This document shows, piece by piece, positions 461 through 59,878 of a stretch of DNA of 64,000 nucleotides. The notes under the pieces were generated by a model. That model did no database searches, was not told the DNA's origin, and saw only the letters and a program-made list of their open reading frames with translations. The stretch is from Eledone cirrhosa (lineage: Eukaryota), in assembly GCA_964016885.1 (NCBI GenBank), contig OZ024751.1, positions 39,866,001 through 39,930,000 on the forward strand, given 5' to 3'. The position numbers and the translations under genes were made by a program. The number at the start of each line of letters is the position of its first letter. The first letter of the stretch is position 1.

Positions 461-675
461 GGAACGAGTAGGACCCCGACGGCTGAGCTCAAGCCGTTTC
501 GACGGCTAATTCTGGACTAAATTTAGTCTTGATTTAGTCCAGAATTAGCCGTCGAAACGGCTTGAGCTCAGCCGTCGGGGTCCTACTCGTTCCTATTACC
601 CACTCTACTACCCTAAGTATTGAGTACTTTGGTGCGTTATGGTCCATCTGGTTCCTTACCACATTTCCTTCGTTA
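461..675 (+). mobile_element. Family A hairpin-plus-tail element (~65-bp arms + ~80-bp tail) in (TA)n; about 18 full or partial copies in the window
   Basis: ggaacgagtaggaccccgacggctgagctcaagccgtttcgacgg... inverted, then tail tattacccactctactaccctaag...ccttcgtta. Confidence 0.9.
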
Positions 676-2663
676 TATAAATATATATATATATTCCAAA
701 TCTTGCTGTTTATTTATATTTTTATTTTTTACAATGTTCCACTTGGAGATGGAAATATAGTATTTCTTTGTTCTAAATATTCAAATTATCCAAAATTACA
801 GACATTTTTCTTTTTTATGTTTTGTTTACAGAACAATTTTCACGTGAATCTATCTGCACAAAAAATAACAGTTAATATAATATTAATATGTTTAATACAG
901 TTGATGTTTTAAAAGTTTCATCTTTTTATATCGACTATTACATCTGACAGAACAATAGATGTGTGTAACACTTATAATTATAGGAGTTTCGTGGTATTCT
1001 TTCATCATTGTTTCGCAGACTTCATTAAGCAAGAAGCTACGACTAAGAATCCCGAACGAATCTTCTTAGTTCTCCTTGTGTTTTAAGACCAGGTGAGAGC
1101 GTAGGATTCAATGGTTGCAATATTCATATGCAAAGTTGAAACCCCAGATATTATTTTTGAAAAAATATATTTCTTACTGACATTGGCACAAACTAAGTAG
1201 TAGTTTGTGGCAAGAGGAAAATCGATTATATCGGCCCCAGTTATTGACTGATATTTTATTTTATCGACCTCGAAAGGATGAAATATAAAATTATCCTCGG
1301 TGGAATTTGAACTCAAGATGTAAAAAACTAACCCAAGTAAAGCTAAAAGTTTGTCCGACATTCTAACGCCTCTACCAATCCACCGCCTTATATTGATTAA
1401 AAGAAACGTATTAGAAATAATTGCGAGATGAGAGAAAGAAAGTATTAGACCAAATTAATTAAAATTGTTTTAATTATTCTAACAAGGGAAGTTGTTTAGT
1501 TAATATCTAATTTTTTTAAATCCTGACATATTTTCTGTAACAAAATACAAATTTCGCTGTATATCATATGTAACCCCCGAAACTTATAAATTATTTAAAG
1601 GTTTCGTGAAATATATACTAAAATCACATCTGTGTGACTGATCTTAAAGATAGCCAAGAAAATGTGTTAATGGGTTATATGACGTCACCAGTGCTGCACT
1701 AAATACGTGATCAGGACACTCACCTCCTCAGGGACATGTTCTAATAGGTTTAAAGATTCTTGGAGTTGTTGGTATTGTTGTTGTTGTTGTTGAGTTCGCA
1801 AGTCAACCCGATGAAACAGTCGCAAATATTATCCACCCGCGACTATGTTTCCAGACATAGTGAATCTAGAACTCTTCTAACCAATACGTCTTCCCCTATT
1901 TTTTTTCCAGACATAGTGAATCTAGAACTCTTCTAACCAATACGTCTTCCCCTATTTTTTAAAACACGATGGATTGTAAATTGAGGTTGAATTTGGAGAT
2001 ATTTACTAATATAACTAACTTTCTCATTATTAAGCTGGAGGTCGGATCAAAATTTAACGAAGGTTATTATATAGAATTATGATGGAAGGGTTTTAGATAA
2101 ATATAAACAGTTTTTTTTATTGAAGAACCAGGGGCGATTTCAGGCAGTTTGGGATCAGAAGGATTAAATGTGGTAAACGGTGCCTTAGATAACGTATATA
2201 TGGCCTTGAATGAAAGAAGGATTAATCCCACTCGGAAAATATTTGATCAAATACCACCACCACCACCACCACCACCACCAGTAGAAGCAGTAGCAGTAAT
2301 AAGAGTAACACTCCACCACATGAAGATGGTAGATTTACTTGTGACCTAACAACGCAATAAATCACGGGTGGTTGATTTTCATTACAAGCAGAAATTTCTA
2401 TAATTAAGAACTGTTCTCCTCCTGAAATAATTTATATCGATGTGACTGGTTTCTTGGCAAAGTTTAACAAATGAAGGCATGTTACGCCATCTTATATGTT
2501 CGTTCCAAAGGAATAGAGTTTCCAATTCGTGGACATTTTACAAGGACATAAATATGTAGAACATGATCATTAACTGGTTTAATTTCTTCCAGCCAAACAC
2601 GCAACTTTCATACAATTTATTTCTACTGGTAAATTAACTACTATTTATATGCTTGACTTTCAG

Positions 2664-3008
2664 GTCGATAATGAATCATTAACGAAAAGTCAATTCAACC
2701 AGTATTTCAACGGTAGTGAAACAATAGTAGCTGGAAAGTTGTCAGATAATCACGTTAAACCATCTTCGTGGAATCTAATTGCTACTACAGGTTCTGGAAT
2801 GATAAACCGCTCCGAGAAATTTAGAACGGTCCGTTTGAACAAGGTTAAAAAGGATTTCGGTTTCCTGAACGATAAAGAAGTGAAGAGTATACCAGAAAAA
2901 CTATGGGCGTACCTAAATATTAAACAAAATTTAGATGAACACACGCTAACTGTTGACGAAGACAAGAAGAAAGAATTAGAAAAACGTATATTGGAACTCT
3001 CCCTAAAG
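2664..3008 (+). CDS. ITIH-like gene, internal exon following the vWA domain (VDNESLTKSQFNQYFNGSETIVAGKL...PEKLWAYLNIKQ...ILELSLK)
   Basis: tttcag acceptor, aag|gtaagt donor, 345 nt, phase 0-0; motifs F.GSE.IVAGKL and E.LWAYL.I.Q are characteristic of ITIH heavy chains. Upstream exons were not found in the window. Confidence 0.93.
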
Positions 3009-57522: not shown

Positions 57523-58370
57523 TTGTTGTTGTTGTTGTTGTTGTTGTTGTTGTTGTTGTTGTTGTTGTTGCTGCTGTTGCTGTTGTTGTTGTTGATGTTG
57601 TTGTTGTTGTCGTTGTTGTTGTTGTTGTTGTTGTTGTTGTTGTTGTTGTTGTTGTTGTTGTTGTTGTTGCTGTTGTTGTTGTTGTTGTTGTTGTTGCTAC
57701 TGTTGTTGTTGTTGTTGTTGCTGTTGTTGTTGGTGGTGCTCTTGTTGTTGTTGCTGTTGTTGCTGGTGCTGTTGCTGTTGTTGCTGTTGTTGTTGTTGTT
57801 GATGTTGCTGTTGCTGCTGTTGTTGTTGTTGTTGTTGTTGTTGTTGTTGTTGTTGTTGTTGCTGGTGCTGTTGTTGTTGCTGTTGTTGCTGTTGTTGGTG
57901 CTGTTGTTGTTGTTGCTGCTGTTGTTGTTGTTGTTGCTGCTGTTGTTGTTGTTGTTGCTGTTGTTGTTGTTGTTGTTGCTGCTGGTGCTGTTGTTGCTGT
58001 TGTTGCTGTTGTTGTTGTTGTTGTTGTTGTTGTTGTTGCTGTTGCTGTTGTTGTTGTTGCTGTTGCTGTTGTTGTTGTTGCTGCCAAGGTTGGAATAACC
58101 ATACTATTAACAATATACAGGGAAAATACTATGATGATGATGATGATGATAAAGATTATGAGAAGAAGAAGAAGAAGAAGAAGAAGAAGAAGAAGAAGAA
58201 GAAGAAGCGGCGGCGGCGGCGACAGCGACGAGGAGGAGGGGGACCAGGAGGAGCAGGAGGGGGGACCAGGAGCAGGAGGAGGAGCAGGAGCAGGAGCAGG
58301 AGCAGGAGAAGCGGGGGTGGGAATAGGAGGAGGAACAGGAGGAGGAGGAGGAGGAAGAGGAGGAGGAGAA
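57523..58370. repeat. Compound trinucleotide array (GTT/GCT, GAT, GAA, GGC, GGA)
   Basis: Read directly. Confidence 0.95.
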
Positions 58371-59672
58371 GCTATATACAATACAAATAACTTGTCCACT
58401 GTAACTGTATGTTGAGAGAGATGTGTTCAATGTTCAATGTTCAATTTGATGTGATTTTCAATAATTGTTGACGGAGATCTAGAGAATAACATTGATTATA
58501 ACCATACAAATAAGGAAATGGTGGTCACGTGGTCGCTTGACCTGCTAAAAATAGCAGCCATATCTCTTGCCTTCTTTGTCATTGAAAGAAAATTATTCAT
58601 ATTGGATTATTGGTTTATTTATCCCTAGTGGCCTAGTGGTTAGAGTGTTGGACTTACATAATGTCGTGGGTTCGATTCCTGGGTTGTGTGTTGTGTTCTT
58701 TAGCAAAACACTTCATTTAAACTATAACACATAGTAGAGTGTACTTCTAATTCTAAACTCTAGCCTTGTCATATACTATATCATGCTGAATCTCTCTGAG
58801 AAAAATTGCAACGGTGCACGTGTCAGTGGAATACTTAGCCATTTACACGTTAGTTCCCGAACTGGACGCTCATCTTCGATTTGACTTGATGCATGCTCAT
58901 CGCTGAAACAGACGGAAGATCTAACATCATATTTTCATTTGTGTTTTTGTTAAGAATGAAAAGTTTCCGAATAAAATATAACTTATTTTTTTTTTAGAAA
59001 ACATGCTTTGGAAAAATCGTATTTTATTCGGTGAAACACTTCCGTTAAAGACAAATCCCTCCACCCACCACACCCACACACCCCCACACACCCAACTCCT
59101 TAAAAGGTAGATATAACTAAGGTAGAAAATATCTCTAATATAATGTGAAATACGACCGTACGTGACAAAATCCTGGATTTATAACAAACTAGCTGTAAGA
59201 CACTAACTCAACTCACAAGCTAATGTTTGTGTATGTACGTGTGTACATGTGTGTGTATGTTTCTGTGTATTTGCTTGTGTGTTTGTACTTGTGTGTGTGT
59301 GTGTGTGTGTGTGGCGGGGTGGGGTGTAAAGTTAGCAATTCAGAGACTTTGGTGATATATCATCTCAGGCAATTTGGGATGGCGAAATAATGGTTCGTCC
59401 ATATTGATTTTAACGTAAAATGGAAAACATCTTTTTCAACAACTATATATATATTATATATATATATATATATATATATATATATATATATATATATATA
59501 TATATATATATATATATATATATATATATATATATATATATATATATATAATATATATATATATGTATATATATATATATATATATATATATATATATAT
59601 ATATATATATATATATATATATATATATATATATATATATATATATATATATATATTATATATATATATATA

Positions 59673-59878
59673 TAACGAAGGAAATGTGATAAGGAACCAG
59701 ATGGACCATAACGCACCAAAGTACTCAATACTTAGGGTAGTAGAGTGGGTAATAGGAACGAGTAGCACCCCCGACGGCTGAGCTCAAGCCGTTTCGACGG
59801 CTAATTCTGGACTAAAAAGTAATCCAGAATTAACCGTCGAAACGGCTTGAGCTCAGCCGTTGGGGTCCTACTCGTTCC
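59673..59878 (-). mobile_element. Family A copy
   Basis: Sequence match; long TA tracts on both sides. Confidence 0.88.

Follow-up and report, generated by a model that had tools for sequence, protein, structure and literature searches.

How does a genome come to hold many short palindromes whose centres all differ? The question is raised by a stretch of 64,000 nucleotides from Eledone cirrhosa (assembly GCA_964016885.1, contig OZ024751.1, positions 39,866,001 to 39,930,000; hereafter the window), which belongs to a microsatellite-rich, 3.0-Gb genome and carries 18 copies of a repeat that we call family A (16 BLAST clusters with sense arm plus tail as query, and the fragments 5937-5999 and 52591-52672). 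A typical copy consists of a TA tract, an inverted arm, a variable centre, a sense arm, a tail of 80 nt and a second TA tract. An initial annotation, made from the letters of the window, had arrived at about the same number of copies. It had also taken the copies for truncated retro-insertions rather than miniature inverted-repeat transposable elements (MITEs), and this view is borne out by variable arms and centres and by a parent that encodes a reverse transcriptase (RT). The parent of family A is a Hydra-type Penelope-like element (PLE) with an intact open reading frame (ORF) for RT and a GIY-YIG endonuclease, and its leader consists of the family A arm and tail. Our preferred reading, to which we assign a probability of about 0.7, is that this leader was inserted as two head-to-head arms by priming at both target ends, run-off from capped RNA and end-joining.

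Positions within the element are numbered from A(+1) of TTAGTCC. T1 denotes the tail end, at which the tailed arm starts, and T2 the inner end of the arm, at which the tail-less arm starts. The outer end of the tail-less arm reads TTCC-TA(TA)n, exactly TTCCTATATATA in 85 of 107 two-armed elements; it had been described, correctly, as a CC-TA boundary at the TA tract, and we favour a second start site over a stop as the reading of TTCC-TAT. The (TA)n target is apparent from TA on both flanks in 75 of the 107 elements and on the left flank in 97.

Parent element and its hammerhead

Copies with longer arms (L080, L111, L037) led to the parent. Their 5' extension is present at 995 genomic sites, and paired matches to it, a few kilobases apart, flank RT (YRDD) and GIY-YIG frames. 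A protein search recovered many open frames of 784 codons, several of them in head-to-tail arrays. The tandem unit measures 3,531 bp and carries arm and tail ahead of the ATG, with the predicted ribozyme cut after +41, T2 at +58/60, T1 at +141 and the ATG at +232; the counterpart of the tail of the first window copy lies 90 nt upstream of the ATG.

The protein has 717 amino acids from the Met and is a single ORF, with the RT followed by a C-terminal GIY-YIG domain. Its motifs are RWR at 37, DKT at 117, YRDD at 348, CNCPDRSIC (CxCX5C) at 572, VIY...YIG at 591, CNLC (CxxC) at 670 and CKH (CxH) at 698. GxKF/Y is absent from the 717 amino acids (pattern G.K[FY]), as is CCHH from the endonuclease, judged by one regular expression without alignment. 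A single ORF with GIY-YIG, DKT, CxCX5C, CxxC and CxH, lacking GxKF/Y and CCHH, is what marks the Hydra clade (PMC8557442, section 11). Judged by these motifs, the parent probably belongs to this clade. At 37 it has RWR, a conservative change from the RWK of the clade. The ORF and its pieces gave no significant match in Pfam. Among 7,996 candidates scored, 2,049 protein relatives were found at E <= 1e-20, with identities of 38-54% for the 120 listed; PF01541, PF26215 or PF28514 is found in relatives.

The arm represents the 3' half of a hammerhead, as had been recognized from the string GAAA-CGGCT-loop-AGCCG-TC/GGGG at 554-580, and the parent holds the 5' half. The complete motif reads ACCCC, YUGANAA, G-N-U-CGGCUA...UAGCCG-UC, GAAA, stem III, UC, GGGGU, and we predict a self-cleaving ribozyme from it. 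The initial annotation had anticipated a parent with a Penelope ORF and a CCCC-CTGANGA core; the Penelope-type ORF and the 5' half of the hammerhead are there, with YTGANAA in place of the expected core, and the pattern CTGANGA-GACGGCTA has one unrelated match (control, 1). Core position 8 is A in all 100 sites listed of 5,834, position 7 is any base, and position 3 is U in most sites and C in the others, apart from a single G. The parent thus has a known variant rather than the canonical core, and because this core is U3-A8, searches for CUGANGA miss its 5' half. U3-A8, which replaces C3-G8, is a natural covariation with reported activity in vitro (PMC3088659) and has been described for a Cercyon PLE (PMC4209133). 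It occurs in the youngest subfamily with intact ORFs, whereas many parents of the window's main subfamily combine C3 with A8; as these two bases do not pair, the predicted ribozyme activity is doubtful in C3 subfamilies.

The minimum free energy (MFE) fold of the parent motif is a type I three-way junction, but its stability is no better than that of shuffles (z = 0.40). A generic descriptor of the type I hammerhead recovers the motif, and Rfam gave no match to it. In 11 aligned parents, 89% of the cells are paired, and three compensatory pairs in stem II all come from two old-subfamily copies. Other candidates for the missing half were set aside. CTGANGA within <=42 nt of the arm has 40 matches, and the 30 examined are point variants of the arm, flanking DNA or ends of other families. 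GAAACGGC-TTGAG, considered as a decayed minimal hammerhead, was dropped, as the 5' half of the parent pairs with GGGGT. The 'ctgaatga' near 5940, previously placed directly before gacggcta, overlaps that string (the GA is common to both) and is a junction scrap ahead of G-AGTCC rather than a hammerhead core.

Further observations concern hammerheads and parents elsewhere in the genome. Loci L007, L010, L017, L020, L065, L099, L276 and L396 include at least six further families of type I hammerheads whose cores are canonical, and L079 near 2598 holds another family with U3-A8, unrelated to family A. Fragments of a second, more distant RT and GIY-YIG family of the same type stand beside a family A insertion (L157:89-1064). 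In L200:7170-10000, where a young tandem insertion has its 5' junction, there are about 50 head-to-tail repeats of a piece of about 55 bp from the ORF, possibly due to repeated template jumps or to slippage during joining. In L194:3290-3390, CTCTACTAC in the tail and GTAGTAGAG downstream of T1 form a perfect 9-bp complement that could enclose T1 in the parent RNA and has no counterpart in short copies; the complement is conserved, yet it is without covariation and lies outside the MFE fold.

The common end of the short copies

Short copies end at a common point within stem II. In 864 kb of unselected sequence, 64 of the 69 arms extending as far as +12 have their end in the interval from -15 to +12 (30/32 T1 arms, 34/37 T2 arms), and the ribozyme cut is the end of 1 of 56 T1 arms. 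Genome-wide there are 53,708 arm sites versus 5,834 sites for the hammerhead 5' half, a rough ratio, as the two patterns differ. ORF-bearing copies behave otherwise. All 16 that reach +12 run beyond -15 (top 30 protein matches, 24 scorable), and over all rows, including self-chosen tandem units and one duplicate, 42 of 43 do the same. Since these copies cross the motif freely, the stop is a property of the template from which short copies were made and not of the sequence. In two ORF-bearing copies (L191 and L192, near 1500) the ends fall at +44 and +49, slightly inside the predicted cut; such cases are too few to call cleaved templates. As a further candidate end, tailed arms ending at +45 to +66 (13/56) were considered as a stall at T2 and rejected, being a mixture of mini-palindromes, tail-only copies and copies with a truly longer T2 arm.

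Two features suggest that the end is the start of the RNA. TYAGT, which we take to be a form of an invertebrate initiator, is present at the stop in 11 of 11 aligned parents, including the two old-subfamily copies. In addition, arms often carry an extra G: excluding T, the base before AGTCC is G in 58, C in 33 and A in 9 of 100 cases, compared with G in 20, C in 55 and T in 25 of 100 before GTCC (A excluded; Fisher p 2e-6), and a G that the partner arm does not explain is found in 34 versus 7. These are hand counts over the first 100 matches on contig C1, in AATT subfamilies only, and some rows are both strands of one junction. An extra G marks capped full-length ends of L1 (PMC11702581), and the Penelope element of D. 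virilis starts from an internal promoter in its pseudo-LTR (LTR, long terminal repeat; PMC2377424). From such sequence features we infer that +1, the A of TTAGT, is a capped transcription start. As the RNA likely starts inside the ribozyme, short copies keep only its 3' half.

The stop lies within the apical hairpin of stem II and is spread over 10-15 nt, and some smaller palindromes have both arms trimmed back (L276, L288). Dual priming could accordingly have been followed by stalling of the RT on stem II, or the stop could be the residue of a later central deletion in long inverted repeats. We consider this version unlikely. It does not agree with the passage of all 16 ORF-bearing copies, and it does not predict the extra G, which is also found on arms abutting the TA tract or flank (4/8 versus 0/6, by hand count). 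Moreover, an old subfamily keeps TTAGT without a conserved apical hairpin.

Two arms and their joining

The arms were compared in 55 two-armed copies, taken from the window, from unselected stretches and from loci chosen for one or two exact arms. Each insertion pairs one T1 end with one T2 end: the unselected 864 kb, with 56 T1 and 39 T2 arms, contains 33 inverted T1-T2 pairs and neither T1-T1 nor T2-T2 pairs. TAT is common to the target tract and either end. Across the genome, we counted the exact two-arm pattern at 11,633 sites with a centre of 0-29 nt and at 1,697 with one of 30-60 nt; as reversed-pattern controls gave none, it is not due to chance. The T2 arm extends further 5' in 22 of the 55 copies and the T1 arm in 20, with 13 tied or ambiguous (binomial p 0.88); a few of the 22 differ by 1-2 nt only, and mismatch-tolerant matching overstated some lengths while leaving their order unchanged. 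In long insertions, which were picked for ORFs or paired matches and not for the side of the tail, the T2 arm is longer in 13 and the T1 arm in 3 of the 16 resolved (28 fetched, 12 unresolved). At L201/L202, a tail-less arm of more than 10 kb faces a tailed arm of 126 bp.

The arms of one copy resemble each other, as had been claimed, with 1.16 mismatches per 42 nt between own arms and 3.7-3.9 between copies, and among the 55 elements no alignment column is specific to the left or right side, as an inherited palindrome might have shown. The variant at 52694, previously called private, is a subfamily allele, a haplotype present in both arms of 6 of the 55 elements and in parents L223 and L225. 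Rare alleles (<=2 of 107 elements) were never found in both arms and 29 times in one. The five quoted centres are all present in the sequence, and 47 distinct centres in 55 elements agree with the proposal that the palindrome is rebuilt at each insertion. Centres show microhomology of 1-2 nt, blunt joins or templated inserts. At L305, the two arms represent two different haplotypes. Taken together, the pairing of ends, the symmetry and the T1 and T2 lengths fit two independent target-primed starts.

The initial annotation had instead proposed a single cDNA that is primed at the tail end, folds back in the region of stem II and copies itself until it meets TA microhomology with the target, and self-priming on the antisense strand has also been proposed for PLEs (PMC3846280). 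Arms that agree within copies, some short perfect-palindrome centres, a few of which retain the natural loop, and the 20 copies with a longer tailed arm are what it would lead one to expect. As a general rule, however, fold-back is already refuted, and we regard it as improbable overall. The T2 arm outreaches its supposed template in the 22 short and 13 long insertions counted above, both length directions are equally frequent, and T2-ended arms can be several kilobases long. The natural loop of stem II, the presumed point of fold-back, is rarely kept at sites of the two-arm pattern. In copies such as 56179-56297, L066 and L101, the T2 arm is full and the sense arm is nearly or wholly missing; where the sense arm is absent, as at 56179-56297, the T2 arm cannot copy the tailed strand in its present form.

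A palindromic DNA element (a MITE or Helentron-like element) descended from a master, with centres changed later by cruciform repair, might be suggested by the short, highly abundant, palindromic copies in TA targets and by a few recurring centre strings (up to 3/55), but it is already refuted by the RT-encoding parent whose leader family A is, by arms of 10 bp to many kilobases with the tail on the long or the short one, and by matching arms in every subfamily without inherited asymmetry, so that it retains next to no credence. Instead of the fixed, inherited terminal inverted repeats and transposase partner of a MITE, family A has variable arms and centres and an RT parent; transposase or Rep-Hel frames, an association named earlier as contrary evidence, were absent between the arms of 12 + 20 long stretches, in a scan that included no separate gene search. 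Retrozymes are short tandem monomers without an ORF, each with a whole hammerhead. We rejected a non-autonomous retrozyme, as the short copies are single and inverted and lack the 5' half, and the tandem unit is coding and 3.5 kb long.

Dual target priming could proceed as follows. The endonuclease would cut the TA tract, as suggested by the target bias and by work on a related enzyme (PMC11167929). Each cut end would pair via TAT with the RNA at T1 or T2, sites 80 nt apart, and be extended, a step that the data constrain strongly. Both cDNAs would probably run off the capped RNA at +1, after about 140 and about 60 nt, with a C sometimes added opposite the cap. The two cDNA 3' ends would be trimmed and fused head to head by host end-joining, presumably of the polymerase theta type. 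The template of short copies could be the mRNA leader or transcripts of terminal repeats. Short copies would thus be a by-product comparable to integrated strong-stop DNA, the short cDNA that LTR elements make close to the start of their RNA. Long copies extend through +1 and are usually longer than one unit, which points to a different template, a multimer or circle, or to a jump of the cDNA (strand transfer). Ribozyme-made circles have been proposed for PLEs (PMC4209133).

Some observations weigh against dual priming with capped run-off. Since few copies combine arms of different haplotypes, a single RNA molecule could suffice, and self-priming could equally explain those centres that form perfect palindromes. 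The stop is a zone of 10-15 nt, with 4,947 sites ending at +1 and 3,823 at +2, rather than one position. The excess of G depends on manual counting within one contig and the AATT subfamilies, with some junctions counted twice, and is much weaker in a scripted count of the first 30 loci per set (15/34 versus 10/32). Many arms carry an extra T, perhaps templated or due to A-tailing, and an extra G at the -4 A, a second candidate start, was not borne out (about 8/100). A TATA-like sequence at -31/-29 is absent from two old copies and not conserved. Finally, in the Poseidon element of Anolis the start sites are within the ORF and were reported to lack homology to the target (PMC11167929), unlike those of family A, which lie in the leader and share TAT.

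A wider and more tentative idea, which we hold to be possible though not probable, is that PLEs resemble LTR elements that use target DNA as primer. The RNA would carry half a ribozyme in its 5' copy and a whole one, cutting at +41, in its 3' copy. RT would start only in the capped leader, paired strong-stop cDNAs would be the default product, and full-length copies would arise via a circle or by transfer on the +1..+41 repeat. If true, this would account for the occurrence of full-length PLEs in partial tandems and for regeneration of the pseudo-LTR.

Copies in the window and relation to known elements

The window is enriched in family A (16 matches per 64 kb versus 37 per 600 kb of other stretches), and its copies are listed below.

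Table 1. Family A copies and their parts in the window.
Feature	Positions	Strand	Remark
Copy 1, T2 (tail-less) arm	459..522	-	TTCC-TAT start at TA tract to +1 region; putative second cDNA
Copy 1, junction insert	523..531	.	template is the arm end, in part
Copy 1, sense arm	532..596	+	536 = A(+1) of TTAGT, putative RNA start; T2 site 593-596
Copy 1, hammerhead 3' half	554-576	+	GAAA, stem III, GUC; predicted cut after 576
Copy 1, stem I 3' strand	577-581	+	
Copy 1, tail, 80 nt	597..676	+	T2 to T1; ends CGT-TAT at TA tract
T2 arm starting G-AGTCC	5937..5999	+	internal deletion; junction scrap ('ctgaatga', CUGAAUGA) ahead of arm
Two-armed copy, centre TTTCGAAA	13885..14050	-	right boundary approximate
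Tailed arm from +1, with partner scrap	15280..15430	-	
Full T2 arm and shortened, rearranged tailed arm	21295..21464	-	
Two-armed copy	23540..23715	-	T2 arm to +7, tailed arm to +22 only
Two-armed copy	24626..24823	-	tailed arm from +1
Older-subfamily copy	25388..25469	+	T2 arm fused to last part of tail; left boundary approximate
Older-subfamily copy	28587..28665	-	partial tail fused to T2 arm starting G-AGTTC; boundaries approximate
Two-armed copy	35033..35244	-	templated duplication in centre
Solo T2 arm	35623..35675	+	TA tracts on either side
Two-armed copy	44602..44813	-	
Solo tailed arm	45778..45901	-	from +20
Older-subfamily copy	52591..52672	+	partial T2 arm fused to tail; most of sense arm absent
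Two-armed copy, CTTACTTGTT subfamily	52691..52897	+	
Two-armed copy	54609..54802	+	tailed arm starts G-AGTCC
Complete T2 arm fused to last 59 nt of tail	56179..56297	-	no sense arm
Two-armed copy	59672..59881	-	

Positions 61467-63637 of the window form a tandem array whose period is about 92 bp, visible as repeated sub-threshold Rfam matches; the 150 Rfam matches listed of 581 for the window are all sub-threshold and of microsatellite or miRNA type. Outside the window, tail-only copies run from T2 to T1 between TA tracts (L076:5917-5998; L280 near 1162), and an ORF-bearing copy has its 5' end exactly at T1 (L176 near 1500). At L039, L047, L053 and L055, around 1500, family A arms from near +1 are fused directly to ends of other hammerhead families, either as chimeric insertions from two RNAs or as nested insertions.

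The origin of the inverted ends, tails and partial tandems of PLEs has been an open question (PMC8557442, PMC2377424). Family A offers more than 13,000 near-perfect natural products together with young intact donors in one genome; these products allow self-priming to be distinguished from priming at two ends, and they indicate a precise point at which the RNA would start. Should the cap reading be true, the commonest product of this retroelement would be an integrated pair of strong-stop cDNAs. For annotation tools the short copies look like MITEs, and the U3-A8 core hides the parent from searches for CUGANGA. If transcribed, the copies would fold into 60-bp hairpins, a type of structure that ADAR edits, as has been shown for a palindromic frog repeat (PMC5625713). 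Separate publications already describe the PLE layout, the Hydra clade, the U3-A8 core and the pair of start sites. We found no published description of a common run-off point or a cap signature in PLE insertions in the article passages searched; Figs S1 and S2 of PMC11167929 may bear on short products.

The parent resembles the Hydra clade (PMC8557442), including Hydra-1_Obim, in its single ORF, motif set, (TA)n target and hammerhead near the end, and its N-terminus is like that of Hydra-1_Obim by eye. It differs in RWR instead of RWK, a unit of 3.5 kb instead of less than 3 kb, the 80-nt tail and tens of thousands of mini-copies, and its listed best relatives are just 38-54% identical. It also has a YUGANAA core with a long stem III, whereas the core listed for Hydra-1_Obim is canonical. 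Head-to-head arms, a tail at one end, partial tandems and a microsatellite target are common to the PLE layout (PMC3846280, PMC8557442). The tail of family A is longer, however, at 80 nt compared with 30-40; roughly nine tenths of the arms end at a single point 60 nt away from the inner start site, and the data for this family contradict the self-priming reading of PMC3846280. Like U3-A8 hammerheads described previously (PMC3088659, PMC4209133), that of family A has a large stem II in which a base close to the 5' end is unpaired, a short stem I and a pseudo-LTR location; unlike these, it has a long stem III, some subfamilies with C3 and A8, and a putative RNA start inside stem II.

Poseidon of Anolis, studied in vitro, likewise has two internal RT start sites that bound a tail, and both target strands are extended; in neither element is the ribozyme cut a common cDNA end (PMC11167929). 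The portions of that article covered here do not treat an inverted arm or run-off products. In twin priming of L1, too, the second target end primes an inverted cDNA, and complete 5' ends carry an extra G (PMC11702581). Compared with both L1 and strong-stop DNA, family A stands apart in that its second site is fixed, the two cDNAs have a span of 60 nt in common, and short products enter the genome in bulk.

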